Virus record (IMG/VR): IMGVR_UViG_3300021057_000001
Span: 1-59,594 of that record
Source of the DNA: a virus
Lineage: Duplodnaviria > Caudoviricetes
Length of the DNA stretch: 59,594 bases
Reading direction: 5' to 3' (one strand)
The notes under the pieces are model-generated. The model searched no databases. It was not told the DNA's origin and worked only from the letters and a program-made list of their open reading frames with translations. Both the position numbers and the translations under genes were made by a program. Shown here piece by piece: positions 4,866-36,470 of this stretch. Numbering within the stretch: the first letter of the stretch is position 1; the number at the start of each line of letters is the position of its first letter.

Positions 4866-4926
4866 CTCTGCCCCCTCCTCACCGCCACCGCCCGCTCGAA
4901 CGCCGCACGGTCGCCCAGGGCGGCGG

Positions 4927-5301: not shown

Positions 5302-5675
5302 CGCCTCGCCTCCAGCGCCGCGAGCACCGAGAGCAGATCGCGCACCAGGTCACGCACCTGCGCCGGCTCGAGGTGCGCCATCGCGTCGTCCCCCGTGACA
5401 TCGAACAGCGTGAAGCGGACGAACTTGCCGCCGTCCTCCGCGGCGAGCACGTAGGCCAGGCCGTCCTTGTTCAGCTCGCGCCGGATCTCGGCGGTCGGCG
5501 CCGGCGGCGGAGCCCAGCGCGCATCGGGCGGCAGCGAGCGCGCGACGCGGAGCAGCTCGGCGAGCGCGAAGTGCTGCGCGGAGACGCGTCGCGTGTCATG
5601 CGCCTCTACCAGCTGGGCCACGAAGGCGAGCACGATGTCGGGGGTAACGGGGAGTGGTGATGTGGCGGTCGCCAT
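5298..5675 (-). CDS. Hypothetical protein
   Basis: MATATSPLP..., coupled to neighbours. Confidence 0.55.
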   Translation of the reverse strand: MATATSPLPVTPDIVLAFVAQLVEAHDTRRVSAQHFALAELLRVARSLPPDARWAPPPAPTAEIRRELNKDGLAYVLAAEDGGKFVRFTLFDVTGDDAMAHLEPAQVRDLVRDLLSVLAALEARR

Positions 5676-5677
5676 GA

Positions 5678-8443: not shown

Positions 8444-8742
8444 GGCGTCGACTCCGCGGGGCAAGCCCACTCGCTCGGCGGCTCGCGGTCGTCGACGAGC
8501 GCCGCGTGCTTGGCGAGCGCCGCATCGATGCCAGCGGACTTAACGAGCCCCATCGCGATTGCCGTTCGCACGGCGGCGACCACGACGCGCGCAGCATCTA
8601 GTTCGGCCATGATCGACGACAGCGCGTTGCCCGCCTCCGTCTGCTCGTGCCACGGCTCGCCATGGCGCAGGATGCGAATGCCGCCGAGGCTGCGGACGAA
8701 CGTGTACTTGCCGCTGTCGACGCGGACAACGTGATCCTTCAC
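8440..8742 (-). CDS. Hypothetical protein
   Basis: VDSGKYTF...ILRHGEPW motif; coupled to neighbours. Confidence 0.6.
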   Translation of the reverse strand: MKDHVVRVDSGKYTFVRSLGGIRILRHGEPWHEQTEAGNALSSIMAELDAARVVVAAVRTAIAMGLVKSAGIDAALAKHAALVDDREPPSEWACPAESTP

Positions 8743-9686
8743 GCGCTCACCCCATTCGTCAGCTTCGCCTTCCGCGCCTGGTACTCCTCGATCCCGCGCG
8801 CGTACAGCGCCGAGCCCTTCACCGGCTTTCCCTCGCCAGCGGCGGCGGCGTCGAGCTCGGCGAGGTTCCGGGCCGAGTCGAGCTTGGCGAGCCAGGACTC
8901 GAACGCGGCATCGAGGGCGGCGGTGAGGGGCGCGCTTGCGGGCGCCGGCTCGACGCGCGGGCGCTCCACGACGTCCGCGCCGTTCATCATCCAGTCCCAC
9001 ACCCGACGCGCGAAGTTCTCGCCCGGCTTCTCGAACAGGTCGCCGATCTCGATGAAGCCGTCGCAGCGCGTCTTCGCGATCTTCATCGCGTGCGTCAGGT
9101 CGACATCACCGACCAACGTGAACTCGTAATCCATCCCGTCCCGCTGGATGGAACCGAGCCCGAGCTTCTTGATCACCGTCTTGCCGTTCTCGACGTCCTG
9201 CACGTACTCCATCTTCTGGCGCATCGTCGCGATCACGTGCGACTTGGAGCCGAGCATCGCGTCGACGAGCGCGTTGTGCTTCGGCGTCACCGAGCGCCAC
9301 GCGGTCCACGAGTTTCCGCCGCGGTCGGCCGCCTGATCCTTCTGATCCAGCGCGCCATCCTTGCCGGCCCACGCGTGCGAGAGCGAGTCGATCACGATGA
9401 AGTCGTAGCCAGCGCGCTCGGCCTCCTCGATCTTCTCGACGTACGCGAGCGGGCTGAACGTGTCGAGCTCGCACACGTCGAAGTCGAACTTGTCGGCGTA
9501 CAGCGACGCGGAGCCGCGCTCGCTGTCGATGACGGCGATGCGGCCTTCGCCTCGCCCTGCCGCCTTGAGCAGCTTCCCGATCTCGGTTGCGATCCTCAGT
9601 GCCGAGTACGTCTTGCCGCTGCCCGCGAGACCGCAGAGCCCGAGCCGCAGCTTCGCCTTCGTCTTGACTGCCTTCTGGAATGCCAC
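8739..9686 (-). CDS. AAA ATPase, Sak4-like single-strand annealing protein
   Basis: Walker A GLAGSGKT, IDSERGS, Walker B IVIDSLSHAW, QRDGMDYEF. Confidence 0.85.
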   Translation of the reverse strand: MAFQKAVKTKAKLRLGLCGLAGSGKTYSALRIATEIGKLLKAAGRGEGRIAVIDSERGSASLYADKFDFDVCELDTFSPLAYVEKIEEAERAGYDFIVIDSLSHAWAGKDGALDQKDQAADRGGNSWTAWRSVTPKHNALVDAMLGSKSHVIATMRQKMEYVQDVENGKTVIKKLGLGSIQRDGMDYEFTLVGDVDLTHAMKIAKTRCDGFIEIGDLFEKPGENFARRVWDWMMNGADVVERPRVEPAPASAPLTAALDAAFESWLAKLDSARNLAELDAAAAGEGKPVKGSALYARGIEEYQARKAKLTNGVSA

Positions 9687-9689
9687 TTG

Positions 9690-9868
9690 TCACCTAACCT
9701 TTCGCGCGCTCGGCCCGACTCGACGGGCTTGGCTTCTGCAGCCGAGAGCAGTGCGGTTTTCCGGATCCCGCTCCGTTGCCGACTAACCGGACTCGCTACT
9801 GGCGCACCGCACGAAGGCGGCTCTGGGCTGACTTCCAGGGCGTTCGCAAAGGTCGGCCGGAAAAACGC
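9690..9868 (-). ncRNA. Candidate structured RNA leader
   Basis: About 180-nt gap with several complementary segments and two local hairpins (see findings). Confidence 0.35.
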
Positions 9869-10312
9869 TCAGAACGGGATGTCGTCGGTCGCCTGTCCGC
9901 CGCCGACATCACCGGCCTCGGCGAACCAGCGATCGACGTCGGCCACCTTGCTCGCATCGAGCTGCGCGAGCGGCAGCGCGCCGCTCATCTTCGCGCTCGT
10001 CCACGAGTTGCCGTTGTGGTTCGCGATCTCGGCGGCGAACGGAACTTTCTTGCCGTTCGCGGCGGCGGCCTTCGCGTCGTCGACGAACGTCTTGACGCTG
10101 CCGCCCTTCCAGCCGATCGCGATCATGTCGCGTTTCGTCCACTTGATGTTCTCGGCGTCGAGCTTGCCGCTGTACTTGGCGCGCTTGCCGGCGTTGGGGC
10201 CCTCGAGCACCTCCATCTCCCAGCGGACGCGCGGCCGCCCTTGGTTATCCGCGCCGAACTCGATGTTGATGGCCTTGCCGATGCAGTTGGGATCTTCGAA
10301 CAGTGCGCTCAT
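9869..10312 (-). CDS. Single-stranded DNA-binding protein (DUF669-like)
   Basis: Ends in acidic DDIPF tail; recombination module context. Confidence 0.75.
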   Translation of the reverse strand: MSALFEDPNCIGKAINIEFGADNQGRPRVRWEMEVLEGPNAGKRAKYSGKLDAENIKWTKRDMIAIGWKGGSVKTFVDDAKAAAANGKKVPFAAEIANHNGNSWTSAKMSGALPLAQLDASKVADVDRWFAEAGDVGGGQATDDIPF

Positions 10313-15913: not shown

Positions 15914-16345
15914 ATGGAGATCGTCTACCTGGCGCACCCGCTCGGCGGCGACGTCGACGCGAATGCCGCACGCGCCCGCCGCTGGCTCCGCTGGCTGATG
16001 GACACATGTCCGCAGTACGCGTTTTGCTGCCCGTGGCTGCCCTTCGTCGATGTCGGTTACCCCGACGACAAGCGCGGACCAGGCGCGATCGATCCTGACT
16101 CGATGCCCGAGTACAGGGCTCGGTGCTTGCGTGACGACATCGCGATCGCGGCGCGCTGCGACGGCATCGTTCTCGTCGGCGATCGCGTCTCGCCCGGGAT
16201 GGCACAGGAGCGCGACGCGGTGGTTGCGTCCGGCGGTTGGGTCGCCGATCTGACCATCTTCAAGGAGTCGTTGATGACCGAGCGTGCATGGCCGAAGGGG
16301 CCGCACGCCACCCCGATCGACCTCGGCCGCGGGTGGCTCCGATGA
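15914..16345 (+). CDS. DUF4406 / nucleoside deoxyribosyltransferase-like protein
   Basis: IVYLAHPLGGD...DIAIAARCDGIVLVGDRVSPGMAQE pattern. Confidence 0.65.
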   Translation: MEIVYLAHPLGGDVDANAARARRWLRWLMDTCPQYAFCCPWLPFVDVGYPDDKRGPGAIDPDSMPEYRARCLRDDIAIAARCDGIVLVGDRVSPGMAQERDAVVASGGWVADLTIFKESLMTERAWPKGPHATPIDLGRGWLR

Positions 16346-17208
16346 TCTACGTGCTCAGCATCTCCGGCGGGAAGGACTCGGCCGCCCTGTGGGCATGGGC
16401 GAAGCGTACCGGGCTCGCACCGCGACGCGCTGTCGCCTGCGACACCGGATGGGAGTACGACGGCGAGGAGTTCGACGACGGGCACACGGCCACGTCGTGG
16501 CACGCGTACATCGCCGCGCTCTCATTCGCCATCGGCGAGCCAATTACGATCGTTGCCGCTGATCGGCAGTTCGACGAGCGCGTGCTCGCGCACAACACCT
16601 TCCCGGGGATGCTGAACCGCCGATGGTGCACCGAAGAGCTGAAGCTGCACCCGTTCCGCGCAGAGGTCGACCGCATTCGAGAAGAGACCGGCGACGACGT
16701 TACGGTCGTAGTGGGCGTTCGCGCCGAGGAGAGCGATGCGCGCGCGAAGATGCCGGAGCGAGAGTGGAGCGACTTCTACGACTGCGAGATGTGGCGCCCG
16801 ATCATCGGGTGGACGCTCGAACAGGTGATCGCCGAACACCACGACGGGAACCTGCCGATCAACCCGCTGTACTTCGAGGGTGCTGAACGCGTCGGCTGTT
16901 TCCCGTGCGTGAAGGCTCGGAAGAAGGAGCTACGCGTGCTCGCGCGGGTCCCTCGCCGGGTCGAGCGCTTGCGTCAGCTCGAAGCAAAAACCGGAACGAC
17001 GATGTTCTGCCTGGAGCAGCCGAAGAAGAAGGGTCAGGAGCGGAAGCTGATCCCCACGCCGATCGACAAGATGATCGAGTGGGCGCAGACGGAGCGCGGC
17101 GGGAAGAGGTTGATGCTGCCGATGTTCCAGGAGCCGAGCGGCTGTGCCCGGTGGGGCATCTGCGAGCGCCCGCTACCTGACGACGACGGAGGCGCCGGTG
17201 ATCGCTGA
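16342..17208 (+). CDS. PAPS reductase family protein
   Basis: SGGKDS PP-loop, DTGWE, WCTEELK, GVRAEES..R, RVGCFPC. Confidence 0.9.
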   Translation: MIYVLSISGGKDSAALWAWAKRTGLAPRRAVACDTGWEYDGEEFDDGHTATSWHAYIAALSFAIGEPITIVAADRQFDERVLAHNTFPGMLNRRWCTEELKLHPFRAEVDRIREETGDDVTVVVGVRAEESDARAKMPEREWSDFYDCEMWRPIIGWTLEQVIAEHHDGNLPINPLYFEGAERVGCFPCVKARKKELRVLARVPRRVERLRQLEAKTGTTMFCLEQPKKKGQERKLIPTPIDKMIEWAQTERGGKRLMLPMFQEPSGCARWGICERPLPDDDGGAGDR

Positions 17209-19539: not shown

Positions 19540-19862
19540 CCGAGTCCCAACTCCAAGACGCGATCCGCTTGGTGCTCAACCACCCGGACCTCGTGCTGTA
19601 CCGCAACAACTGCGGCATCGCCGAGATGCGCGGTCACAAGGTTCGCTTCGGCGTCGGCTCGCCCGGTGGCGCGGACCTCATCGGCTGTTTCCGCGGTCGG
19701 TTCCTCGCCGTCGAGATCAAGACGCCGACAGGCCGACAGAGCCCGGAGCAGCGCGCGTTCCAGCAGCTCATTGAATCCAAGGGTGGCATCTACGTGATCC
19801 TCCGCAGCGTCGAGGACGCGCGCGCGTGGCTCGCGCAGCTCACCCGCACCGAGGCCGCGTGA
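19536..19862 (+). CDS. VRR-NUC nuclease
   Basis: TESQLQ, GGADLIG, AVEIKTPTGRQSPEQ. Confidence 0.92.
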   Translation: MTESQLQDAIRLVLNHPDLVLYRNNCGIAEMRGHKVRFGVGSPGGADLIGCFRGRFLAVEIKTPTGRQSPEQRAFQQLIESKGGIYVILRSVEDARAWLAQLTRTEAA

Positions 19863-21964
19863 TCGCCGTGGATGCCCGCGCCAGGCTGTCTACGCTCGAC
19901 GCTGCGTGTCTGTGTGCCGAGCGCGGACTGCACGTCATCCCGGTCTGGCGGACCGTCGCCGGGCAGTGCCCGTGCGCGCGCGGCAAGGACTGCATCAGCC
20001 CGGGCAAACACCCAGTCATCGACGCATGGCAGACATCAGCGACGACCGAGTTGACCGTGCTGCGCGACTGGTTCGCCGCGGACCGACACAACCTCGGCGT
20101 GGTCTGCGGCGCATCGGATATCTGCGTCATCGACATCGATCCACGCAACAAGGGCGCCGAGACGTTCGCTGCACTCACGGCCGAGCTCGGGCCGCTGCCC
20201 GGCACCGTCAGCGCCGACAGCGGCGGCGGTGGTGAACACTACGTATTCCGTCGCCCGCCTGGCGAGTTGCTTTCCAAGCTCGGCCCCGGTGTCGACCTGC
20301 TCCATGGTGCGCGGCAGTTCCTTGTCGAGCCGTCGCTCCACGCCTCCGGCAACCCGTATCGCTGGAAGCCGGGGCGCGCGCCCGACGAGGTGAAGATCGC
20401 CCAGCTGCCCGACGCGTGGATCCGCAAGGCCCAGCGCCCAGCCGTCGTTCGCACGTGGACGGCACCCGTCGTATCCACCGACCAGCGCGTTCGCCGAGCG
20501 TCCGCGTACCTGGCGAAGCTGCCCGGTGCAGTCTCCGGCGACGGCGGACACACCGCGACGTTCAACGCGGTGGCAACCATCATGTTCGGCTTCGACCTCG
20601 ACGCCGCGACGACGTACCAGCTCATCGCGCATGAGTACAACCCGCGCTGCGACCCACCGTGGTCCGAGCGCGAGCTCAAGCACAAGATCGATTCCGCCGC
20701 CAAGAACTGCACGCGCACGCGTGGCTACCTGCTCGACGACGATCGCCGCCCAACGCGCACGACCGAGCAGGCGGCACGACAAGCGCCGGCGCCGACCGAC
20801 AGCGAGCCGGAGAACTGGGCGGCGCAGATCATCGCGACCGACAAGGGCAAGACAAAGCGCGGCTACCACAACGTGCTGACCTTCGTGCGGCTCTACCCGG
20901 ACTACCGCGGACGCTGGAGCTTCGACACCATGACCGGCGATGTCTGGTTCGGCGACGCGAAGATGCCGGATACGTTCGTGCACGAGATTCGGGCGCACGC
21001 CGATCGGCGCCTCGGTTTTACGCCAAGCCGCGACGACGTCGAAGCCGCGATCCAAACGTGCGCCGAGCAACGCCCCTTCCATCCGATCCAGAACTACCTG
21101 CGCTCGGTCGACTGGGATGGCGTGCCGCGCCTGCGGTCAATGGCGCGCGACTACTTCGGCAGCGACAGCGATCTCCACGCCGAGCTGGTGCGGAAGTGGA
21201 TGATTAGCGCGGTCGCTCGGGCCATGAACCCGGGCTGTAAGGTCGACACGGCGCTGATGCTCCACGGAGAGCAGGGCTACTTCAAGTCGACGTTCTTCTC
21301 GATCCTCGGAGCCCAGTGGCATGCCGACTCCGCGATCGACATCTCGAACAAGGACAGCTTCCAGCAGATTCACGCCGCGTGGATCTACGAGTTCAGCGAG
21401 CTCGAGAACGTCGTGCACGGACGCGCCGAGTCGCGGCTCAAAGCGTGGCTGACGTCGACGCACGACATGTACCGCGCGCCGTACGCGCGCACCGTCGTCC
21501 GCAAGGCGCGCAGCTGCGTCATTTGCGGCACGACGAACCGGAAGCAGTTCTTGACCGACGAAACCGGCACGCGCCGGTTCTGGGTCGTACCCGTCTACCA
21601 GATCGTCCCGCGCGAACTACTCGCGGAGATGCGCGACCAGCTCTGGGCAGAAGCGTTCGCTGCGTACGAAGCCGGCGAGAAGTGGTGGCTCGAACGCGAA
21701 CAAGACGCCGAGCTCGAGGAAGCGAACATCGACTTCAGCGACGAGGACCCGTGGCAGCAGCCGATCGCATCCTGGCTCACACAACCGACGATCACGGAGA
21801 TCACGATGTCAGAGCTGTGCCTGATAGCGCTCAAGCTCGAGGTGAGCCGACACGACTCGTCCACCACTCGCCGTGTTGCGAAGGTGTTGGCCAGGTTGGG
21901 GTGGCGACGCAGGCGTGAGACCAACGGCGATCGAGTCTGGCGCTATGTGCGAGGTGACTCGTGA
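19859..21964 (+). CDS. Bifunctional primase-polymerase fused to VapE-type helicase
   Basis: GKHP, NLGV, VIDIDPRN, GGEHYVF, EPSLHASG (Prim-Pol); HPIQNYL..VDWDG, GEQGYFKST, RAPY, GTTN, TGTRRFW (VapE). Confidence 0.93.
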   Translation: MIAVDARARLSTLDAACLCAERGLHVIPVWRTVAGQCPCARGKDCISPGKHPVIDAWQTSATTELTVLRDWFAADRHNLGVVCGASDICVIDIDPRNKGAETFAALTAELGPLPGTVSADSGGGGEHYVFRRPPGELLSKLGPGVDLLHGARQFLVEPSLHASGNPYRWKPGRAPDEVKIAQLPDAWIRKAQRPAVVRTWTAPVVSTDQRVRRASAYLAKLPGAVSGDGGHTATFNAVATIMFGFDLDAATTYQLIAHEYNPRCDPPWSERELKHKIDSAAKNCTRTRGYLLDDDRRPTRTTEQAARQAPAPTDSEPENWAAQIIATDKGKTKRGYHNVLTFVRLYPDYRGRWSFDTMTGDVWFGDAKMPDTFVHEIRAHADRRLGFTPSRDDVEAAIQTCAEQRPFHPIQNYLRSVDWDGVPRLRSMARDYFGSDSDLHAELVRKWMISAVARAMNPGCKVDTALMLHGEQGYFKSTFFSILGAQWHADSAIDISNKDSFQQIHAAWIYEFSELENVVHGRAESRLKAWLTSTHDMYRAPYARTVVRKARSCVICGTTNRKQFLTDETGTRRFWVVPVYQIVPRELLAEMRDQLWAEAFAAYEAGEKWWLEREQDAELEEANIDFSDEDPWQQPIASWLTQPTITEITMSELCLIALKLEVSRHDSSTTRRVAKVLARLGWRRRRETNGDRVWRYVRGDS

Positions 21965-27332: not shown

Positions 27333-28917
27333 AACGAGCCTGGCCGCAGAGCGTCAGCGCGCGCTGAGGCGCCTGCTGCGGCTGTCGTTCGCTGACTTCG
27401 CGGCCTACTTCTGGCCGCGGATGACCGGCCTTGCGTGGCCGGACAACACCGCGACGCGGGCCCTGACGTCGGCGCTGCAGTCGGTCGCCGATGGCCGGAT
27501 CTGGCGGCTGCTCGTCGCGATCTCCCCGGGCATCGGCAAGTCGACGATGCTCGCGCTGTACTCCGCGTGGCGCCTGGCTCGTCGCGCGGACTGGCGTGCG
27601 CTGCACGCGATGGCGGCGTCGACGGACGCGAACCGCGAATCGCTGCGCGTGAGACGCCTGGTGCAACACGAGGATTTCGCGCGGCTGTTCCCGCACGTGG
27701 TGCTCGCCGAGGACGAGCAAACCGTGCAGTCGTGGGCGACGACGAAGGGAGGCAGGTACTACGCGCTCGGCACCGACACCGCGATCACTTCTAAGCGCGT
27801 GCTTGAGATCGTCGTCGACGACCCGATGTCGGCGCTCGACCGGCACTCGAAGGCCGAGCGCGATCGGGTATGGATGTGGCTCGACGAGGCTGCCACGTCG
27901 CGCCTCGACGGCGATCGCGCCCCGGTGATCATCGTCGCCCAGCGCCTGGACCGCGACGACATCCACGCGCGATGCCTCGGCAGCTCGAATCAGTGGGTCA
28001 TGCTCGAGCCGGCCGCCGAGCGCGACGGACGAGGCCTCGAGCTGCGCGACCACGCCGGCGATCTCGTGTGGAGCGACGACCGCGCGCCCGACGAGTTGAT
28101 CGCGCCGCAGATGTTGTCGCGCGAGAAGCTCGCCGGCTTCTCCAAGGCGGTGCGGACGACGCAGTATCAGCAGCGCCCCGACGAGAGCGGCGGCGGTGCG
28201 ATCGCGCGGGACGCCTGGCGGTTCCACGCTCCGGCGGGCGCAAACCCCAACGCGCCGCGGCCGCGGGGATGCGCGACACAGGATGTGTCGCCGACCGTTG
28301 AGACGCCAGCATCGTTCAGCCACATCGTGATCTCGCTCGATCCGACGTTCGGCGGGACGAAGACGCAGAACGACTTCGCGAGCGCGCAGGTCTGGGGCGC
28401 ATCGGGATCGGGGCGCTACCTGCTCGCTCGATGGAAGAAGCGATCGAAGCAACGCGAGCAGAGGTTTGCGCTGAAGGCGTTCCGCGAGCGCTTCCCCGAC
28501 TCGACGATCATCATCGAGAAGGCCGCCGGCGGCGAAGGCATGGCGGAGGAGCTCGAGGCCGAGACGCCGCCGGTGAAGCGAATCGAACTGATCACCGTCG
28601 GGACGCACACCGGCGGCAAGGCCGCGCGGCTCGACAACGTAAGCCCGACGATCGAGCAGGGCTTCGCGTACCTACCGATCGGGATGCCCGAGCTACAGGA
28701 CTTCGTGGACGAGCTCGCCGGCATGACGCCGCATGACGACGACATGGACTCGTGCTCGCAGGCGCTGCACTGGTTAAACATGAAGGCGGGCAAGCCGAAG
28801 CCGGTGCCCCAAGGCGGCTCGCGCGGCACGGCATCAACGGTAGTTGCTGCGGCGCCCGTCGCTCAATCTGCGCCGTCCATCTACGCCGCGATCGGCGCCG
28901 CCGCGCGCCCGAGGTGA
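27316..28917 (+). CDS. terL: Terminase large subunit
   Basis: ISPGIGKST Walker A, IVVDDP Walker B, QYQQRP, SLDPT, IIEK, HDDDMDS nuclease motifs. Confidence 0.93.
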   Translation: MAPSTETSLAAERQRALRRLLRLSFADFAAYFWPRMTGLAWPDNTATRALTSALQSVADGRIWRLLVAISPGIGKSTMLALYSAWRLARRADWRALHAMAASTDANRESLRVRRLVQHEDFARLFPHVVLAEDEQTVQSWATTKGGRYYALGTDTAITSKRVLEIVVDDPMSALDRHSKAERDRVWMWLDEAATSRLDGDRAPVIIVAQRLDRDDIHARCLGSSNQWVMLEPAAERDGRGLELRDHAGDLVWSDDRAPDELIAPQMLSREKLAGFSKAVRTTQYQQRPDESGGGAIARDAWRFHAPAGANPNAPRPRGCATQDVSPTVETPASFSHIVISLDPTFGGTKTQNDFASAQVWGASGSGRYLLARWKKRSKQREQRFALKAFRERFPDSTIIIEKAAGGEGMAEELEAETPPVKRIELITVGTHTGGKAARLDNVSPTIEQGFAYLPIGMPELQDFVDELAGMTPHDDDMDSCSQALHWLNMKAGKPKPVPQGGSRGTASTVVAAAPVAQSAPSIYAAIGAAARPR

Positions 28918-28918
28918 T

Positions 28919-28948
28919 TCGCCCCGCCGCGCCAGCGTCGGCCACTGT
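28919..28948 (+). promoter_or_regulatory. Late promoter motif (portal)
   Basis: TCGCCC-N18-CACTGT, ATG 10 nt later. Confidence 0.6.
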
Positions 28949-28958
28949 TTCGCCAGAG

Positions 28959-30353
28959 ATGGCGAACGCTGGCCGATTCCAGAAGGGCGACGATCCGCGG
29001 CGCCACACGCCCGTCGCGAAAGCCAAAGGCGCCCCCGGCTCGACCGGCGTCATCTCATACAGCGGCTACCTCCAGTCCAGCGAGCCCGGCGAGATCACCG
29101 GCCGCCAAAAGTGGATCGAATACTCCAGAGCCTGGGCGCATCCGCCCGTCGCGATCTGGGCGATCCTCCGCTCGGCGCTGCTCTCCGGGATGAAGTGGTC
29201 ACTGACGGAGAATCCCGCCGGCGGCGCACAGGCGAAGCGCGGCGTCGAGATCGTCCAGCAGGGGTTGCTCGACGCGCGGCTTTCGCGCCCGTGGCCGCAG
29301 ATTGTCGCGAAGGCGCTGCTCGCCGACGCGAACGGGTTCTCGCTCCACGCGACGGCGCTGGGCCGCCGCAAGGACGGGCTCGTCGTCTACACCGACATCG
29401 CGCATCGCCCGCCGCACACCGTCGAGAAGTGGCTGCGCAAGGTCGAGAACGACGAGACCACGCCGTTTGTCGCCGTCGAGCAGACGACCGCGAGCGGCAA
29501 GCGGTTCCCGGTTCCGCTCGACGAGTGTCTGTATCTCGTCAGCGACACGCTGACCGACTCGCCCGAGGGTGCCGGGTTCCTGCGACTCGTCGCCGAGCGT
29601 CTTCGGAGGATCTCGAAGTACGAGCGGCTCGAAGGCTCGGAGCTGTTCTCTTCGATGGGGGGCACACCGATCGCGCGCGCGCCGCTCGAGGAAATCGCGA
29701 AGCACGCAGCGCAGCAGCCGGGCGCGACGGACGCGACCATCACCGCGGCGATCTCGAGCGCGACGACGGCGATCGAGACCGCGGTGTCAGAGCGGATCAA
29801 GACGCCCGACGTTCAGCAGTACCTGAAGCTCGACTCGGCGACGTACAAGGGCGAGAACCCGGACACGATCTCGTCGACGCAGAAGTGGGCGATCGAGACG
29901 GTGAAGGGCGAACTGCAGGGGCTGCCCGAGATCCGCAAGATCATCGCCGACCTGACGCTTGACGTCGCCCGCATGCTCGGCGTCGAGTTCGCGTTCATCG
30001 GCGGCGGCGACACCAGCGGGACGCAGGCGCTCCACGAGTCCAAGACCTCGGTCTTCGCGCAGTCGCTTCAGGCCGGCGCGGCGCGTGTCGCGCAGTCAGC
30101 GGATCAGCAGCTCGTGCGGCGGCTCGTCCGCGCGAACGGGCTCGATCCGGACGTCGCCGCACCGTACCTGACGCCGGCGGCAATCTCGTCGAAGGACGTC
30201 GAGAAGGTCGCTAGGGCTCTTGGTCTGCTCAACATGGCCGGCCTGGCGCCGAACCACCCGGCGAAGATCGCGATGTTCGAGGCGCTGGAGCTGCCGTGGC
30301 AGGACGAGGCGGCAGGGCTGATGTTGCCGACGAGCGGAGGGGGATTCCCATGA
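28959..30353 (+). CDS. Portal protein
   Basis: Follows TerL, about 464 aa; NGFS, DSPEGAGFLR, GGDTSGTQAL, QQLVRRLVRANG features of DUF935-like portals. Confidence 0.85.
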   Translation: MANAGRFQKGDDPRRHTPVAKAKGAPGSTGVISYSGYLQSSEPGEITGRQKWIEYSRAWAHPPVAIWAILRSALLSGMKWSLTENPAGGAQAKRGVEIVQQGLLDARLSRPWPQIVAKALLADANGFSLHATALGRRKDGLVVYTDIAHRPPHTVEKWLRKVENDETTPFVAVEQTTASGKRFPVPLDECLYLVSDTLTDSPEGAGFLRLVAERLRRISKYERLEGSELFSSMGGTPIARAPLEEIAKHAAQQPGATDATITAAISSATTAIETAVSERIKTPDVQQYLKLDSATYKGENPDTISSTQKWAIETVKGELQGLPEIRKIIADLTLDVARMLGVEFAFIGGGDTSGTQALHESKTSVFAQSLQAGAARVAQSADQQLVRRLVRANGLDPDVAAPYLTPAAISSKDVEKVARALGLLNMAGLAPNHPAKIAMFEALELPWQDEAAGLMLPTSGGGFP

Positions 30354-30895
30354 GCCAACTCCTCACCTTCGCCAACACGGCGACCGCGACGATCTACGGC
30401 TCGCTCGCCGGCTGCCTGGCCTACCTCGGCGCGCGCACGACTGATTGGAATGCCGTCGCCACGGACGAGACGCTCTGGCGCTTGCTCGTCCAGGCGCGCG
30501 ACCTGATCGACGCGCAGTCGTGGTCGTCTGCGTACGACACGTTCGCCGAGCGCGACGCGCTGGACCTCGGCACGGGATCGGGGGATGCCGCGTTCCCGTT
30601 CCGCGCCGCGGCGTACTTGCTGGCCGAGATGGGCCGCACGGATCCCTCGGTGCTGTCCGGCGCCGTCGAGAGCAACGTCTCTAGCATCAGCGACGGCAGC
30701 GCCAGCGTCAGCTACTTCTCTCCCAAGAGCCTCGCGCGCGGGACCGTGACGATCTTCCCGAAGCGGGTGATGGATCTGATCGGCGCGTACCTCGCGAAGA
30801 CGAACCTCGGCGGCCCGCAGGGCGGCACGTCTGTCTCTGGCTCCGACGCGAACCCGTTCGACGAGGCCACCGACTTCGAGCCGGACGACGTATGA
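30350..30895 (+). CDS. Head-tail adaptor (DnaT-like family)
   Basis: YGSLAGCLAYL...LLVQARDLID...ISDGSASVSY...LIGAYL. Confidence 0.7.
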   Translation: MSQLLTFANTATATIYGSLAGCLAYLGARTTDWNAVATDETLWRLLVQARDLIDAQSWSSAYDTFAERDALDLGTGSGDAAFPFRAAAYLLAEMGRTDPSVLSGAVESNVSSISDGSASVSYFSPKSLARGTVTIFPKRVMDLIGAYLAKTNLGGPQGGTSVSGSDANPFDEATDFEPDDV

Positions 30896-31275
30896 GCGAC
30901 CTCGGCAAGCTCGTCGCGCAACACCTTGGCTCTGTGGCCGAGACCGGCTACGGCGCGATCACGCTCTCGCGCAAGACGGCGGGGACGTGCAACGCCAGCA
31001 ACGTCACCGCAGGCAACGCGCCGACTTCGGTCGACTACCCGTGTCGCGGTCGGCTCTCGTCGCGACAGTCCACCGTCGTCGTGGGCGGCACGTACACGCG
31101 CGTGCAGACGCCGACGATCGTGATCCTGCGCGACTCGCTCCCCGTCGGTGTCCGTCCAAAGGTCGGCGACACGGTGACGCGAACTGGGACCACGTATCGA
31201 GTCCTCGAAGGCGGCACGTCGCGCGGCGGCAGCGAGGCCACCTACGAGTGCGCGGTCTCCGCGCCGGGCGGGTGA
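30892..31275 (+). CDS. Head closure / head-tail joining protein
   Basis: 127 aa; PKVGDTV...YRV...YEC pattern; follows the adaptor. Confidence 0.6.
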   Translation: MSDLGKLVAQHLGSVAETGYGAITLSRKTAGTCNASNVTAGNAPTSVDYPCRGRLSSRQSTVVVGGTYTRVQTPTIVILRDSLPVGVRPKVGDTVTRTGTTYRVLEGGTSRGGSEATYECAVSAPGG

Positions 31276-31278
31276 CGC

Positions 31279-32730
31279 GTGAGTGAGCGCGACATGCGCA
31301 GGCTCAAGGCGCTGCTCGAGAAGCGGCTCGGGCTGTCATGGGCGGATATCACCGAGTGGCTCCGCGAGCAGAATTCCGTCGAGGAGATCGAGCGCCGTCT
31401 TGCGACCGGCCAGTGGGGCGAGCTCGTTCAAGGTGTCGACGCTGCGGGCAAGAAGCTCGCCGACGATCTGCACCAGGCGTACGTAGTCGCCGGGCAGACG
31501 CAGGCTGAGTGGCTCGACCGTCAAGAGCGGCTCGCCGACACGCTGGCTCGGTTCGACACCGGCCAGGCTGCCGTCGTCGATCGCCAGCGACAGAGCGAGG
31601 TCAAGCTCGTCGGCGCTATCACCGAGGAGAGCCGCACCGTCGTGCGGCAGATCCTCGTCGACGGCCGGCTCGCCGGCGAGCACCCGCGCGACATGGCCCG
31701 GCGGTTGGCCCCTGTCGTGCGCGACTCGATCGGGCTGACGCCGTCGCAAGAGAAATGGGTCTCGAACTACCGCCGCGCGCTCGAACAAGGCGACTACGCG
31801 CGCGCGCTCGGCTACGAGCTGTCGAGCGGGAACGCGGATCGCACAGTTCAGTCGGCGCAGAGCCGCGGTAAGGCCCTCAGCCCCGCGCGGATCTCGGAGA
31901 TGGTCGACGCGTACCGGCGCAACGCGATCGCGTACCGGGCCGAGACGATCGCGCGGACCGAGGCGCAAGGCGCAGCCGAGGCAGGCGCTCAGGATGCGCT
32001 GCGGCAGGCCGTCGACCGCGGCAACGTGAAGGCGGAGGAGTTGATCGTCATGTGGCATGCCGGGCCGGGAACGGCCGACGCGCGCGAGATGCACCAGGCG
32101 ATGGACGAGAAGACGGTGCGGTTCGGCGAGGACTTCATCCTGCCCGACGGGACGGCGATGCGGGGGCCGCACGACTCGCGCGGCGGCGCGCGTCATAACG
32201 CGTCCTGCCGGTGCACGTCGAGCACGACGATCGATCTGGACCGGGCACCGGAGATCGATCTGGATGTACCTGCAGCGGCGCCTGTACCAGTACCTGCGGC
32301 GACCGTCGAGGAGCCACCCGCGCAGCCCAAGAACCCCAGGCGCGTGGCTGCCGCAAGGCTCGCCGCTGCGGCATCGGTCGAGCGGCGACGCGAGATCCAC
32401 TCGGCGGCGCGCAGCAATCTTCCTCCAGAGTTGCACGTAGTCTGGGACAAAGAGGGCCACAAGTTCATGAGGGAAGAGGCCGCCCGGATCCGTGGGGTCA
32501 AAGACCGCGTGAACGCGTCGTCCACGCTCTCTCAGGCGTTCGCGGAGAAGTACGGCTCAGGCGCTGAGACCGCGTTCGGCAACGAAGGCGATCGGTACTT
32601 CCGGCGCGCCGAGCTCGAGGCAGAGCACGCGATATCGTGGGCCGACGAGCAGGAACGGAAGTACTACGCCGAGGCCGAGGCGGCGGCAGCGCGCGGAGAA
32701 TTGAACGACGACGACGATGTGCCCTTCTGA
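31279..32730 (+). CDS. MuF / SPP1 gp7-like head morphogenesis protein with C-terminal extension
   Basis: IGLT, RAETIARTE, REMHQAMD, RGPHD...NASCRC; about 160 aa extension ending DDDDVPF. Confidence 0.88.
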   Translation: MSERDMRRLKALLEKRLGLSWADITEWLREQNSVEEIERRLATGQWGELVQGVDAAGKKLADDLHQAYVVAGQTQAEWLDRQERLADTLARFDTGQAAVVDRQRQSEVKLVGAITEESRTVVRQILVDGRLAGEHPRDMARRLAPVVRDSIGLTPSQEKWVSNYRRALEQGDYARALGYELSSGNADRTVQSAQSRGKALSPARISEMVDAYRRNAIAYRAETIARTEAQGAAEAGAQDALRQAVDRGNVKAEELIVMWHAGPGTADAREMHQAMDEKTVRFGEDFILPDGTAMRGPHDSRGGARHNASCRCTSSTTIDLDRAPEIDLDVPAAAPVPVPAATVEEPPAQPKNPRRVAAARLAAAASVERRREIHSAARSNLPPELHVVWDKEGHKFMREEAARIRGVKDRVNASSTLSQAFAEKYGSGAETAFGNEGDRYFRRAELEAEHAISWADEQERKYYAEAEAAAARGELNDDDDVPF

Positions 32731-32743
32731 TACGATAGGCGCG

Positions 32744-33019
32744 ATGGTCGGCGACGACAGGCACGCGGCGATCCTGCGCAGAGTTGCGCTGGTCGCTCTC
32801 GACGAAGCCCAGGCGGCGCAGCGGCTGGCGCAAGAGGCTCCGAGTGAAGGTCTCACGCGCGCAGCGTTCCGTGCATGCGTGTTCGCGCGTCGCGCTCTGC
32901 TCCGGGCGTCCGAGGTGCAGTCGGACAGCCGCAAGGAAACGAAGATGATCGAGCTGTCCATGGTGATGGCCGAGGCCGCCGAGGCGTTGAGCGCCAGTCT
33001 CGTTCGTTTCGCAGGGTAG
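32744..33019 (+). CDS. Small helical protein downstream of MuF (candidate partner or immunity protein)
   Basis: 91 aa; TACGAT -10-like hexamer at 32731-32736. Confidence 0.5.
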   Translation: MVGDDRHAAILRRVALVALDEAQAAQRLAQEAPSEGLTRAAFRACVFARRALLRASEVQSDSRKETKMIELSMVMAEAAEALSASLVRFAG

Positions 33020-33041
33020 TTCGCGCGCCACTGCGGCTGAA

Positions 33042-33070
33042 TCGCCCCGCCGCTCCTGAACCCTGAGACT
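33042..33070 (+). promoter_or_regulatory. Late promoter motif (protease/scaffold)
   Basis: TCGCCC-N17-GAGACT, ATG 9 nt later. Confidence 0.7.
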
Positions 33071-33079
33071 GGGTTCCAG

Positions 33080-33514
33080 ATGAGCGAGCCCCTTCGAAAG
33101 ATCGAGACCTCGGTCTGCAAGGTCGATCGAAAGCTCGGGCTCGTCTTCATGCGCGCCATTGTCTGCAAGATCGACGGCGAGCCGTACTACGACCTCGGCT
33201 CGGTCGACGAAAGCACCGGCGAAGCGTACGCGGACCACATCTCCGAGGAGGAGATGCTGGAAGCCGTCACCGACTTCATGCTCAAGGCGCGAACCGTCAA
33301 GGCCATGCACGCCGGCGGTTCGCGCGGCGTCGTCGTCCACTCCTGGCCCGAGACGGCCGAGACGGCGAAGGCGTACGACGAGCCCGCGCCGCGGATCACC
33401 GGCTGGAAGGTTGCCGTCAAGGTCGACGACGACCTGCTCGCGAAGCTCGAGAGCGGCGAGATGACCGGCAGCTCGATCGGCGGCCGGGCGCAGCGCGAGA
33501 AGGAGTCGACGTGA
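33080..33514 (+). CDS. XkdF-like prohead protease
   Basis: KVDRKLGLVF, DHISEEEM..A..DFM, KAMH, GW...KVDD, GEMTGSSIGG. Confidence 0.8.
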   Translation: MSEPLRKIETSVCKVDRKLGLVFMRAIVCKIDGEPYYDLGSVDESTGEAYADHISEEEMLEAVTDFMLKARTVKAMHAGGSRGVVVHSWPETAETAKAYDEPAPRITGWKVAVKVDDDLLAKLESGEMTGSSIGGRAQREKEST

Positions 33515-34398
33515 TCGAGTCCAACAAGAACAAGCTGCCCAAGGCGCGGCTCGGGAAGCTCGTGATCGACGAGTTGTCGATCGTCGATCGGCCCTGCGTC
33601 GAGCCGGCGACCGTGATGCTGATGAAGCGCGCTACCGACGACGAATCGCACGCAGCGGCACACGAATCGCCCCGTCCGCCGGCCCTCACTAGAAAGGTAT
33701 CCACCATGACGCTCGATGAAGCCCTCGCGGAGATCAAGGACCTGAAGGCCAAGCTCGCCGAGCTCGACAAGTCCAAGGAGGATCTCGAGGAGATCAAGGA
33801 CGAGGCCGAGAAGCGCGCGACCATGACCGACGCGCAGCGCGCGCACTACAAGACGCTCGACAAGGCGGACGCCAAGGCGTTCCTCGCGAAGTCGGCAAGC
33901 GAGCGCGACGCGGACGTAACGAAGCGCCTCGCGGGCGATCCGGTCGAGGTCGAGTTCAACGGCGTCGAGTACCGCAAGAGCTCGGGCCCGGCCGTCATCG
34001 AGCTCGCGAAGGCGGCGAAGGCGCAGGCCGAGCAGCTCGCCAAGCGTGACAACGAGATCAAGAAGGCGCGCATCCGCAAGGCGGCGTCGGAGATCCTGAA
34101 GAACGCGCCCGGCACCGACGCGACGCACGACTTCATCGTCGAGCAGCTCGAGGGCAACGCAGACGCGATGGCGACCCTGAAGGGCCTCGTCGCCACCTCG
34201 TCGATCGGCAAGTCGGCGGCGGGCGCCGGCGGCGAGGCAATCGTCGACACCGGCCCGCAGGCCGAGTTCGACGCGCTCGTCGCCAAGCACGTCGAGATCC
34301 ACAAGTGCGACGCCGGCACGGCGCGGCTCGCGGTCACCAAAACCGAACGCGGTCGCGCTCTCTACGGAGAGATCGAGCTGCTCAAGAAGCGTCGCTAA
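33511..34398 (+). CDS. Scaffolding protein
   Basis: IDELSIVDRPC N-terminus then Lys/Glu/Ala coiled coil; precedes capsid genes. Confidence 0.7.
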   Translation: MIESNKNKLPKARLGKLVIDELSIVDRPCVEPATVMLMKRATDDESHAAAHESPRPPALTRKVSTMTLDEALAEIKDLKAKLAELDKSKEDLEEIKDEAEKRATMTDAQRAHYKTLDKADAKAFLAKSASERDADVTKRLAGDPVEVEFNGVEYRKSSGPAVIELAKAAKAQAEQLAKRDNEIKKARIRKAASEILKNAPGTDATHDFIVEQLEGNADAMATLKGLVATSSIGKSAAGAGGEAIVDTGPQAEFDALVAKHVEIHKCDAGTARLAVTKTERGRALYGEIELLKKRR

Positions 34399-34453: not shown

Positions 34454-35443
34454 ATGACCACCGCGAACGCCGTCGAGCAGGACCCGCACTACATCGAGAT
34501 TCCCGCAGGTTCGAATCTCTCGTCGTACCAGTACCGCTTCATGACCAACACGAGCGGTCAGGCGGCGCTGCCGTCGTCCGGCGGTGCGGTCATCGGCGTG
34601 CTGACGAACGATCCGGACGCCGCCGACAAGCCGGCCACGATCCAGTACTCGGGCATCGCACTCGTGCTCGCGGCGGGCTCGATCACAGCGGGCGGCAAGG
34701 TGCAGTCCGACGAGAACGGCAAGGCCGTCGCTCAGTCCGGCACCGGCATCCCGGCCGGCTGGGCGATGAAGACCACCGCGGCAGACGAGTACTGCCCGGT
34801 CCTCCTGGCGAACCAGGCAGGCGTCGCCGCCGTGACGAGCGAGGAGACGGTGACGAGCGGTGCGCTGTCGCTGAATCCGCAGTTCACCTACCTCTCGGTC
34901 ACCGGCACGCAGGCGTACACGCTCGCGGCCGGCACCTACGTCGGCCAGCGGAAGATCATCGAGTGCACGGTCGCTGCGAGCACGCCGGTCGGCACGCTGA
35001 CGCTCGCCGACGCCTACGGCACCGAGCCCCTGACTCACGTGTTCCGCGCGGTCGGCCAGAAGCTCGTGCTCGAGTGGCGCACCGGTGGCTGGAAGGTCCT
35101 CGACAAGAAGCGCGCCGGCGCGATGACGGTCGTCGTCGGCACCACGGTGCTCACCGGCGAGGACATGGTCTATCGCTACGAGCTGTCGGTGACCGGCACC
35201 GTCGCGTCGGACAGCACCAAGGGAATCCCCGACGGTCTCGTCGCCGGCGAGACGATCGACGTGCAGGTCACGACGGCCGCGTCCACGCCCGATGGCGAGA
35301 TCAACATCACCGCCGAGGATCTCGACGGTGCCGCAGCCACGAAGATCGACACGATCGACGGCACCACCAGCCACATGTTCCGCGGGATGTGGACCGGCCT
35401 CAAGTGGCAGACGGTCGCCATCACCGGAGTCGTCCTCGCGTAA
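34454..35443 (+). CDS. Capsid cement/decoration protein with two repeated beta domains
   Basis: DUF2190-like N-terminus (IGVLTN..., ITAGGKVQSDENGKAV) followed by an internal repeat. Confidence 0.7.
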   Translation: MTTANAVEQDPHYIEIPAGSNLSSYQYRFMTNTSGQAALPSSGGAVIGVLTNDPDAADKPATIQYSGIALVLAAGSITAGGKVQSDENGKAVAQSGTGIPAGWAMKTTAADEYCPVLLANQAGVAAVTSEETVTSGALSLNPQFTYLSVTGTQAYTLAAGTYVGQRKIIECTVAASTPVGTLTLADAYGTEPLTHVFRAVGQKLVLEWRTGGWKVLDKKRAGAMTVVVGTTVLTGEDMVYRYELSVTGTVASDSTKGIPDGLVAGETIDVQVTTAASTPDGEINITAEDLDGAAATKIDTIDGTTSHMFRGMWTGLKWQTVAITGVVLA

Positions 35444-35483: not shown

Positions 35484-36470
35484 ATGACCCGTCCCACTTC
35501 CGCCGATGCCCACGTCGCCCAGGTCATCACCGACTGGGCGATCGCCTACGCCAACGAAGCCACGTCGTACAAGTGCGACTTGCTGTCGCCGAACGTCCCC
35601 TCATCGAAGCGAGAGGCGAAGTTCTACACCTACGACAAGGCGCCGTGGTTCACGGACGAGATGCAGAAGCGCGGCGAGGGCGCTCCAGTCCCGATGTCGG
35701 GCTACACGCTCTCGACCACGCTGTTCGAGATCGACACGTGGTCGCTCGGCAAGCCGATCGACGACCAGGCCCGCGACAACGAGGACGACATCCTCGACTC
35801 CGACGAGGACGCCGCGCGCTTCCTGATGGAGAAGGAGCGCATCCGTCGCGAGAAGGCGTTCGCCGCGGCCTGCCTCGCGACCTCGAAGTGGTCGCTCGAC
35901 GTGACCGGCAACACGTCGGCGTCTGACTACACCGCGAACACGGTCGCGCAGTGGGACGACTCGGACTCGAACCCGCTCGTCGACATCGCGACCTACAAGA
36001 CGCGGATGAAGCTCGCGACGGGCCTGGATCCGAACGTCTTCGTCTGTGGCCGCCAGGTCTGGGACATCGTCAAGAACCACGCCGACATCACCGACCTGCT
36101 CAAGGGCGGCGCAACCACGGCCAACCCCGCGAAGGTCACGCAGCAGGCGGTCGCCGCGCTGTTCGAGCTCGAGGACATCATCGTGATGGACGCGGTCGAG
36201 AACACGGCCGCGGCACCGAAGGCGATGACCGGCGCGTTCATCGCGGGCAAGCACGGCCTGCTCATGCATCGCAACATGAACGCGGGCCGCAAGGGTGCGA
36301 CCGCGGTCAAGACCATCACCTGGAAGCGCCCCGGTACCGACGCGCGCGGCTTCCGCATGCTGAAGTCGGCGATCGACATCCACCGCGATCTGGTCGAGGT
36401 CGAGTCGAACTTCACGGTGAAGATCTGCGCGAGCGACCTCGGCATCTTCTTCAGCGGTCTGGTGGCGTAA
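35484..36470 (+). CDS. Major capsid protein
   Basis: 328 aa; ITDWAIAY, QWDDSDSNPLVDI, TGLDPNVFVCGRQVW, DLGIFFSGLV. Confidence 0.88.
   Translation: MTRPTSADAHVAQVITDWAIAYANEATSYKCDLLSPNVPSSKREAKFYTYDKAPWFTDEMQKRGEGAPVPMSGYTLSTTLFEIDTWSLGKPIDDQARDNEDDILDSDEDAARFLMEKERIRREKAFAAACLATSKWSLDVTGNTSASDYTANTVAQWDDSDSNPLVDIATYKTRMKLATGLDPNVFVCGRQVWDIVKNHADITDLLKGGATTANPAKVTQQAVAALFELEDIIVMDAVENTAAAPKAMTGAFIAGKHGLLMHRNMNAGRKGATAVKTITWKRPGTDARGFRMLKSAIDIHRDLVEVESNFTVKICASDLGIFFSGLVA

Follow-up and report, generated by a model that had tools for sequence, protein, structure and literature searches.

An SSB-like C-terminal tip on a phage MuF head protein and its linked small downstream gene

Enzymes of bacterial replication, repair and recombination have a central docking peptide in the C-terminal tip of SSB. 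Published tips share an acidic run followed by a terminal Pro-Phe, as in DDDIPF of E. coli (PMC5872125), ...GGGDDEPPF of mycobacteria (PMC7847540) and DEPPF of Streptomyces SsbA (PMC3616714), with Ile at the -3 position in the E. coli tip and in the alphaproteobacterial tip LDDEIPF. In phage HK620, the DUF669 protein is itself an SSB, and it recruits Sak4 through its final six residues (PMC5928155).

A separate body of work concerns phage proteins that may travel with the DNA. The C-terminal MuF-associated domain (Ct_MAD) of Jamet et al. (2017, PMC5576092) was derived from the C-terminal region of COG2369 (Mu F type), with sequenced phages and bacterial genomes as its basis. That MuF extensions are ejected is, in the literature, still a hypothesis. 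ADP-ribosyltransferase, inorganic-pyrophosphatase and DarB-like domains are among those reported for the "polyvalent" proteins that virions deliver (Iyer et al. 2017, PMC5512222). Here we present a phage locus where the two themes meet, a MuF head protein with a conserved helical extension that ends in an SSB-like tip, followed by a small gene; the two-gene cassette has the look of a so far undescribed cargo that is delivered together with phage DNA.

The locus lies in the window, the whole 59.6-kb stretch of viral DNA that was analysed. On the + strand, the reading frame from 31279 to 32730 (stop included) is open for 483 aa, and ...ELNDDDDVPF-stop is its C-terminus, just as the first-pass annotation had it. 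The GTG start at 31279 finds support in the homologue consensus, which keeps the same N-terminus; in the public gene call the protein has 478 aa. The product was assigned to MuF by its match to phrog_3517 (E 1.5e-50, residues 7-321) and by its head-module setting. Pfam PF04233 gave E 4.3e-05 and 24.7 bits, under the cut-off of 29.6, and homologues with 68-73% identity to the MuF domain do pass the Pfam threshold. Four segments make up the protein: a MuF head-morphogenesis domain (residues 1-319, 31279-32235, + strand), a Pro/Ala-rich linker (residues 320-348, 32236-32322, + strand), a helical module of about 117 aa, and the DDDDVPF-COOH tip. The MuF domain was delimited by its match to short-form MuF proteins of 307-325 aa, 68-73% identical, which end where the domain ends; the boundary previously placed at NASCRC was confirmed (...NASCRCT), and 164 residues follow it as a C-terminal extension. 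The Pro/Ala linker, read from the sequence, has an AF2 pLDDT of 59-79 and is unconserved in alignments. Beyond it, the earlier claim of a helical domain without a recognised family was borne out by the AF2 helices and by the absence of any family match.

MuF is a head component, and the gene sits near the portal gene in a head module that runs portal (28752-30353), adaptor (30296-30895), head-closure (30892-31275), MuF, small ORF, XkdF-like protease (33080-33514), scaffold-like (33511-34398), cement-like (34454-35443) and major capsid (35484-36470). Antisense ORFs at 31336-32460, 32498-33340 and 32557-33168 were rejected as mirror frames on their atypical GC1/GC3 profile. The position of the gene between the head-closure and the protease and scaffold genes, together with the reported binding of MuF to the portal (PMC5576092), would also fit an extension that serves head assembly in a structural way only, the acidic tail contacting scaffold or portal, for instance. 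We regard such a role as highly improbable, since the nearest MuF relatives assemble heads without this extension (45 short or other forms; 78 module-less loci), and the cassette moves among unrelated MuF subfamilies and into giant multidomain proteins.

The helical module (residues 349-465, 32323-32673, + strand), delimited from homologues and from the AF2 model, has no known family or fold. In that model, with a mean pLDDT of 86, four helices cover protein residues from about 353 to 471, the module is all-helical without an OB fold, and the tail after the helices is of low confidence. Neither a Pfam nor a PHROG family was found on the extension (residues 322-483); PDB sequence and profile searches with the extension returned nothing below E 0.01, and tblastn of it against 50,697 phage records gave no match. 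For the module, Foldseek against PDB and BFVD produced no match at E<=0.001, VIA-align across 48,161 chains reached a best Z of only 5.4, and the ESM Atlas offered no usable match. A known domain, which the first-pass annotation had named as an outcome contrary to its own reading, was thus found in the extension by none of the family, sequence or fold searches.

The module family is rare, with 43 representative clusters, all of them from uncultured viral contigs, and it therefore has no biology attached to it. Within 36 representative clusters retrieved at E<=1e-30 from 1.84 billion proteins, the module is 55-79% identical. Two scans of genome contigs detected no relative in 185,579 species genomes, and our searches found no cultured phage or prophage with the module and no paper describing such a cassette. 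In the homologue set, which comprises 64 proteins with a full module, the module is C-terminal in 60. None of the 45 MuF relatives without a module ends in PF, and as the nearest MuF relatives (68-73% identical) are short forms, the extension is judged by this comparison to be an accessory, not a core part of the protein. The module is found on several MuF subfamilies, behind ADP-ribosyltransferase domains in four proteins (P0062, P0087, P0106, P0107), and in company with an inorganic-pyrophosphatase or DarB-like region in others (P0085, P0089, L005); three MuF-less module proteins have the motif GYNPYRxxxGxFAxG at their N-termini. From this distribution, the cassette is taken to be mobile and set in an effector context.

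This anatomy recalls the classical MuF polymorphic toxins, with MuF at the N-terminus, 100 aa or more of C-terminal extension (164 here), a downstream ORF of less than 150 aa and an accessory, mobile cassette; the helical module would then be the toxin, the 91-aa product of the downstream ORF its immunity protein, and the tip an accessory feature. We nevertheless find this explanation improbable. The Pfam, PHROG, PDB and fold searches revealed no toxin domain or catalytic-looking fold in the extension, and an identity of 55-79% across hosts and architectures is unusually conserved for a polymorphic toxin. Moreover, in several relatives the module stands behind the toxin-type ART domain, not in its place, and the small gene accompanies the tip and not the module (neither of the two loci with an internal module has it). 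MuF toxins have also been tied to temperate phages (PMC5576092), whereas no copy of the module was found in 185,579 species genomes.

After the module comes a short flexible linker and the acidic tip (together 32674-32727, + strand), the tip itself, DDDDVPF, being residues 477-483 at 32707-32727; this segment has an AF2 pLDDT of 56-77. Conservation of the terminal DDxPF had been set as a test by the first-pass annotation, and every one of the 60 homologues whose module is C-terminal has acidic residues and then x-P-F at its end, the pattern of the published SSB tips. Pro at -2 and Phe at -1 are invariant (60/60 each), with D at -6 in 52, D or E at -5 in 58 and D or E at -4 in 59 of the 60. The residue at -3 falls into four classes (44 PPF, 14 VPF, 1 APF, 1 CPF). 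The codons of the tip vary among loci while its residues stay constant. In these homologues the linker between module and tip measures 15-65 residues (median 40), bears a net negative charge, is rich in A, E, R, D, P and G, and is not alignable. The layout as a whole is SSB-like, with a disordered linker that joins the folded domain to an acidic tip. In a six-frame translation of the window, [DE][DE]xPF-stop ends just two frames, the MuF ORF and the ORF of an SSB-like protein, and among 80 related high-GC MuF loci, 509,114 bases in total, it occurs only in the two with the module. None of the 60 tips has at -3 the Ile or Leu of the published E. coli and alphaproteobacterial SSB tips and of this phage's own SSB-like protein; this absence weakens a simple reading of the tip as a copy of the host tail.

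Immediately downstream lies the 91-aa gene (32744-33019, + strand), which exists as the first-pass annotation had claimed and equals the public gene call P0121. Its product is modelled by AF2 as a three-helix bundle (mean pLDDT 96.2) and belongs to a family of 14 unnamed proteins among 5.8 billion, whose net charge spans -6 to +10. Foldseek matched it to generic three-helix bundles only (best E 0.13), VIA-align reached a best Z of 11.6, less than the approximately 13 that is common for helical models, and its structural neighbours in the Atlas were ferritin- or rubrerythrin-like bundles under the naming bar; PDB sequence and profile searches gave nothing meaningful. The first-pass annotation had credited the gene with a -10 element of its own, TACGAT, at 32731-32736, 8 nt before the ATG, and this was not supported: a promoter scan found no sigma-70-like site in 31000-33600, and a private promoter was rejected. 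At the gene junction (32725-32746, + strand), the sequence reads TTC-TGA-TA, with the start codon of the small gene 10-11 nt past the stop. TTCTGATA is unchanged in 10/10 aligned loci, and counted from the last base of the stop, a start codon comes at 13-14 nt in the eight loci checked. This close spacing suggests translational coupling of the two genes. Fusion of the two by readthrough or frameshifting was rejected as a general rule, the small ORF being in frame 0 in two loci and in frame +1 in the other six checked.

Conservation of the downstream gene, a check that had likewise been proposed for this locus, was found on all 11 contigs with a tip and in none of 73 testable module-less MuF loci. 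A total of 78 such loci had been collected, the short-form MuF loci having been found by an alignment-based scan where a single-sequence scan found none. The small gene is also absent from both loci in which the module is internal and tipless (L007, L009). By gene content, then, the small gene appears to track the tip, not the module, and the 91-aa protein appears to be the cognate partner of the tip-bearing MuF protein.

Such a linkage would be expected if the two genes formed a self-contained pair, in which the 91-aa protein is the receptor of the tip, tethered to MuF as head cargo or in a head-internal complex, and the likeness to SSB is convergent. In keeping with this, the residue at one alignment position of the small protein (F42 in the window, located in helix 2 on a face of conserved Arg and Ala) follows the tip residue at -3, being F or L in the four VPF loci and Y or H in the six PPF loci, apparently through three separate switches. 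The lack of any tip with the Ile or Leu at -3 of the E. coli and alphaproteobacterial SSB tips points the same way, as does the small-protein homologue of L001, which is fused to a long extension bearing the GYNPYRxxxGxFAxG motif and hints that both partners may be head-targeted; the fold of the small protein resembles peptide-binding MIT-type bundles, at Z scores of 10-11.6 that are within helical-bundle noise. However, the covariation is weak, with at least one such column arising in 17 of 210 relabellings, and the pair leaves unexplained the full SSB-tip pattern of three to four Asp, x-P-F, a free C-terminus and a disordered linker. A charge range of -6 to +10 would also be odd for the dedicated receptor of an invariant acidic peptide. 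On balance we consider the self-contained pair unlikely.

The second frame in the window that ends in the motif belongs to a DUF669-type SSB-like protein of 147 aa (9869-10312, - strand; context, outside the cassette), which scores 24.1 bits against Pfam DUF669 (cut-off 21). The first-pass annotation had likened the MuF tip to the tail of the phage's own SSB. The DDIPF ending of that comparison stands (ATDDIPF), and membership in the classical SSB family does not, as no PF00436 match was found in the genome. The adjoining gene (8739-9686, - strand) encodes an AAA_24 or Sak4-like ATPase (PF13479, E 2.4e-24; phrog_124, Sak4-like, a weak match). Among the VPF phages, two have an SSB-like protein, in both cases ending in DDIPF; the available records of PPF-type phages are fragments that comprise only the module gene. 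As no DNA polymerase domain was detected among the 31 larger ORFs scanned, replication of the phage probably relies on the replisome of the host, and this operates through SSB. The same 31 ORFs, which are not all the ORFs, yielded no integrase domain, and a helix-turn-helix repressor-like gene is present.

These genes raise the prospect that the tip addresses the phage's own recombination or replication proteins, linking the incoming or packaged genome to a phage annealase on the model of HK620. In that phage the SSB ends in NDYPPF, and without its final six residues Sak4 is neither bound nor stimulated as required (PMC5928155); here, both this phage and the L001 phage (G001) pair a Sak4-like AAA_24 ATPase with an SSB-like protein ending in DDIPF. 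Two of the four complete cassette genomes (G002, G003), on the other hand, have neither an AAA_24 protein above the cut-off nor a second protein ending in the motif, and while MuF belongs to the late structural proteins, Sak4 is not known to be in the virion. We thus rate a target among the phage's own proteins as very improbable.

The reading that we favour, tentatively and at somewhat less than an even chance, is that of an SSB-tip mimic, anchored on MuF and delivered by the virion, together with a cognate protein that caps it or acts as its partner; the first-pass annotation had arrived at a virion-delivered SSB-tail mimic with a small partner, a proposal that is partly supported. We read the region as a mobile two-gene accessory cassette grafted onto MuF, the first gene of which adds to MuF the helical module, the flexible linker and a tip that matches the SSB docking peptide. 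MuF would carry the extension into the procapsid, and the extension would leave the capsid together with the DNA. The exposed tip could then enter the SSB-tip pockets of host genome-maintenance proteins, which would be either blocked, with the tip as a decoy, or recruited to the entering DNA. In the producing cell, the small protein may cap or chaperone the tip and module until packaging, a role that could include that of an antidote. A bolder form of the proposal, possible if doubtful, is a capsid-delivered "pseudo-SSB", in which a non-OB module on MuF, by way of the flexible linker and a genuine SSB-type tip, hijacks or jams the host SSB hub at genome entry and the neighbouring gene encodes the tip cap; repeated Pro/Val switching at -3 would then be an adaptation to hosts or to the cap.

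If true, a conserved SSB tip on a head-internal protein would be a new phage route to the SSB hub before phage gene expression, and would add a non-enzymatic, peptide-mimic class to the known MuF C-terminal cargoes. Should the 91-aa protein prove to bind the tip, it would offer a tool, as a naturally occurring protein ligand of an SSB-type tip. Mechanism aside, a new and sharply delimited two-gene cassette has been defined.

Among known systems, the prototype MuF protein, SPP1 gp7, is a head-internal minor protein that shares the MuF domain and a gene adjoining the portal gene, and differs as a short form without an extension. The MuF polymorphic toxins (Jamet et al. 2017, PMC5576092), the main text of which does not mention SSB, have in common with our locus the N-terminal MuF domain, a variable extension of 100 aa or more, a small ORF directly after the gene and the proposal that delivery accompanies the phage DNA; in place of a recognisable toxin domain there is here a conserved helical module with an SSB-type tip, and no prophage link was found. 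T4 Alt and the polyvalent proteins (PMC5512222) are alike as effectors injected with DNA, and relatives of the window protein combine MuF, ART, pyrophosphatase, DarB-like region and module, whereas the window protein itself has MuF and module only. In the portions of PMC5512222 covered, the module and tip are not among the domains described and SSB has no mention. The HK620 DUF669 SSB and its Sak4 (PMC5928155) offer a PPF-ending phage protein for comparison, and the window also has a DUF669-Sak4 pair, with a DDIPF ending; the HK620 protein, however, genuinely binds ssDNA and belongs to the replication and recombination module, whereas here a late head protein bears the tip, and Sak4 is missing from half of the complete cassette genomes. 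Like bacterial SSB tips (DDDIPF, DDEPPF), the MuF tip lies at a free C-terminus, has x-P-F after three to four acidic residues, and is preceded by a linker that is disordered and variable. It differs in the residue at -3, mostly Pro or Val and never Ile or Leu, in that its docking on SSB partners is putative, and in what bears it, the MuF tip sitting on the helical module of a capsid protein and the SSB tip on an OB-fold tetramer.

The record is complete at 59,594 bp, with direct terminal repeats and 68% G+C, and the 483-aa ORF at 31279-32730 (+), whose product ends in ELNDDDDVPF, sits inside a standard head module. The order of this module is portal, Ad1-like adaptor, Hc1-like head-closure protein, MuF gene, small ORF, XkdF-type protease, scaffold-like protein, cement-like protein and major capsid protein. 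Residues 7-321 constitute the MuF/gp7 head-morphogenesis domain (phrog_3517, E = 1.5e-50; Pfam PF04233 scores 24.7 bits, under its 29.6-bit cut-off). The anatomy proposed in the first-pass annotation holds: past ...NASCRCT, a Pro/Ala linker leads into a helical region and an acidic tip. Here, everything C-terminal of the MuF domain is called the extension, its conserved helical part the module, and the module-plus-tip gene together with the small ORF the cassette. Elsewhere, at 4116-7258 (-) and 16237-17208 (+), the window encodes two DNA methylases (N6/N4 and C5) and a protein with a PAPS-reductase domain; these may point to DNA modification or anti-restriction functions.

Among 83 relatives of the MuF protein recovered from 5.8 billion clustered proteins, the nearest MuF domains (68-73% identity) belong to proteins of 307-325 aa that end just past the CRC motif, and relatives of 459-505 aa have the extension too; judging from these sequences, the extension is an optional add-on to MuF. 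With the extension alone as query, 43 matches were obtained at E ≤ 0.001 among 1.84 billion representatives, 36 of them at E ≤ 1e-30, with 55-79% identity, so the module is rare yet very strongly conserved. It is present on several distinct MuF subfamilies, behind an ADP-ribosyltransferase domain in some relatives (e.g. P0062, P0087, P0106 and P0107), with an inorganic-pyrophosphatase domain (P0085, P0089), with a DarB-like region (locus L005), and within four giants, 1,512-1,933 aa long (P0099, P0101, P0104 and P0105; giant-module loci L007 and L009). Such companion domains are typical of virion-delivered effectors (PMC5512222). Some of the giants also have ADP-ribosyltransferase or ParB-like regions, and the giants keep the module internally, with neither tip nor small gene. 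No match to the module was found in cultured phage records or in 185,579 species genomes, and all carriers fetched were uncultured viral or metagenome contigs of 62-69% G+C. Third-position G+C is 0.76 in the extension and 0.79 in the small ORF (32236-33019), versus 0.88 in the MuF domain (31279-32235) and 0.92 in the protease gene (33080-33514), which is compatible with a cassette acquired from elsewhere. Same-subfamily MuF proteins at L033, L055/L056/L059, L095 and L098 carry other C-terminal extensions, which range from 304 aa to over 1,000 aa and contain no Pfam domain, so that the MuF C-terminus appears to be a site where unknown cargo is generally attached.

MuF proteins sit inside the head, bound to the portal (PMC5576092), and an accessory, mobile cassette found on such a protein and beside domains of the virion-effector type favours an effector; a purely structural role for the extension within the head is highly improbable. 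The reading that we tentatively favour is a MuF-anchored putative effector, in which the tip would imitate the SSB docking peptide and the small protein would cap or chaperone the effector.

A module profile run over 117 collected proteins matched 70, with the full module in 64; of the six partial matches, two share the PPF ending, three come from fragmentary or truncated sequences, and the last, at 8.5 bits, is probably spurious. The module is C-terminal in 60 of the 64, followed by 15-65 more residues (median 40), and P-F are the last two residues in all 60. Position -3 is occupied by Pro (44), Val (14), Ala (1) or Cys (1), and an acidic residue (Asp or Glu) stands at -6 in 54, at -5 in 58 and at -4 in 59 of the 60. 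The four giants, where the module is internal, lack the motif, and a PF ending occurs in 0/45 module-less relatives from the 83-relative search. Conservation of the terminal acidic-xPF among homologues, which the first-pass annotation had put forward as a check, was thus confirmed wherever the module is C-terminal. Within the window, [DE][DE]xPF-stop closes just two frames, and across 509 kb from 80 related loci it occurs at none but the two that bear the module; given this scarcity, a chance origin of the tip is negligible. Tip codons vary among loci, and the tip residues are unchanged. Of the 44 PPF-type proteins, 20 have a Trp in the linker, 13-19 residues short of the C-terminus and frequently within D-W-x-x-P-P; the mycobacterial SSB peptide used in PMC7847540 likewise has Trp as its first residue, 19 from the end. 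On a quick, poorly resolved module tree, residue -3 switches repeatedly between Pro and Val (~10 changes, at least two forced by well-supported branches), and the VPF of the window is nested in a supported 15-sequence clade with 13 PPF members.

When a small-protein profile was run over the stop-to-stop frames of all fetched loci, the small gene (32744-33019, +, in the window) was found directly downstream of the tip-bearing gene on all 11 contigs that have one (the window, L001-L006, L008, L010, L104 and L105; 10 distinct sequences, L010 being identical to L004), so the downstream gene, also singled out for checking, is conserved. It was not found in L007 or L009, where the module is internal and without tip, nor in any of 78 module-less MuF loci, 73 of which include 400 nt or more of sequence downstream. 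Presence of the small protein tracks the tip, not the module, and this pattern speaks for the main rival reading, a self-contained tip-receptor pair with the small protein as putative receptor. The same reading draws on the tips themselves, since Ile or Leu at -3, as in some published SSB tips, occurs in 0/60, and on small-protein column F42 (window numbering), which is F/L in four VPF loci and Y/H in six PPF loci, a weak association equalled by 17 of 210 relabellings. We consider such a pair unlikely, and a classical toxin-immunity pair, with the small gene encoding the immunity protein, rather improbable.

A start codon lies 13-14 nt beyond the last base of the stop of the tip-bearing gene in the eight loci checked, and the junction reads TTC-TGA-TA in 10/10 aligned loci (window 32725-32746; L001-L008, L104 and L105 junctions), with the next start codon placed 10-11 nt after the stop. 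The three bases after TGA are TAG in five loci, TAA in one and TAC in four, the first two being invariant despite the ~68% G+C of the DNA; this junction could serve as a termination-reinitiation signal. The private -10 previously assigned to the small ORF is unsupported, a promoter scan having found no promoter-like site in 31000-33600. Taken with the close start codon and the invariant junction, this makes it most likely that the pair is co-transcribed and coupled. In L001 (5407-8499; record G001, 89.9 kb), the module-plus-tip protein (333 aa) is unfused to MuF and is followed by a 408-aa protein, the first ~95 residues of which are a small-ORF homologue, and then by a separate 284-aa MuF. 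The motif GYNPYRxxxGxFAxG (in L001 at about 5560 and 6734) is present near the N-terminus of the three MuF-less module proteins (P0063, P0069, P0071) and also in the L001 small-ORF fusion protein, and it may serve in head targeting or in binding to MuF.

The AlphaFold2 model of the module (45-sequence alignment; mean pLDDT 86, low-confidence tail) has four predicted helices, at fragment residues 34-61, 64-80, 91-107 and 118-152. Foldseek against PDB and BFVD returned nothing at E ≤ 0.001, the best Z from VIA-align over 48,161 chains was 5.4, searches of the PDB by sequence and by profile found nothing, and ESM Atlas yielded no usable match; across these searches, among them the Foldseek comparison suggested at first pass, the module matched no known fold. 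The 91-aa small protein is predicted to be a three-helix bundle (pLDDT 96.2) resembling many generic bundles, MIT domains among them, at Z 10-11.6, a level that helical models commonly reach; among 5.8 billion proteins its family counts 14 members, all unnamed.

A phage target for the tip is conceivable. The recombination module of the window (7259-10312, -) encodes a DUF2800/PD-(D/E)XK nuclease, an AAA_24 Sak4-like ATPase and, adjoining these, a DUF669 SSB-like protein (9869-10312, -) that ends in ATDDIPF, the tail that had been read at first pass as that of the phage's own SSB. A primase-polymerase/VapE helicase lies at 19826-21964, and no DNA polymerase domain was found in the 31 larger window ORFs scanned. 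The DUF669 protein of phage HK620 is a genuine SSB, whose last six residues, NDYPPF, are required to bring Sak4 onto SSB-coated DNA (PMC5928155), and it is this precedent, together with the window's own DUF669/Sak4-like pair, that would link the cassette to the phage's own Sak4 system. Such a link is distinctly improbable, however: Sak4 and a second motif-ending protein occur in just two of the four complete cassette genomes, G000 and G001, and G002 and G003 carry the cassette with both absent. Host proteins and the small protein would be the only candidate partners present in every carrier.

Full-text searching of the literature, including SSB-Ct mimics, tip motifs and ejected proteins, turned up no SSB-type tail on any capsid or MuF protein, and SSB has no mention in the main text of the MuF-extension survey PMC5576092 (the supplementary domain tables of which might list relatives) or of the polyvalent-protein survey PMC5512222. 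The likeness to SSB tails noted at first pass was substantiated, the tip having the pattern of the SSB C-terminal tip, which reads DDDIPF in E. coli (PMC5872125), ...GGGDDEPPF in mycobacteria (PMC7847540) and DEPPF in Streptomyces SsbA (PMC3616714). Although the folded domain of the extension is not SSB-like, it is followed by a variable acidic linker and the tip in the same layout as in bacterial SSB.
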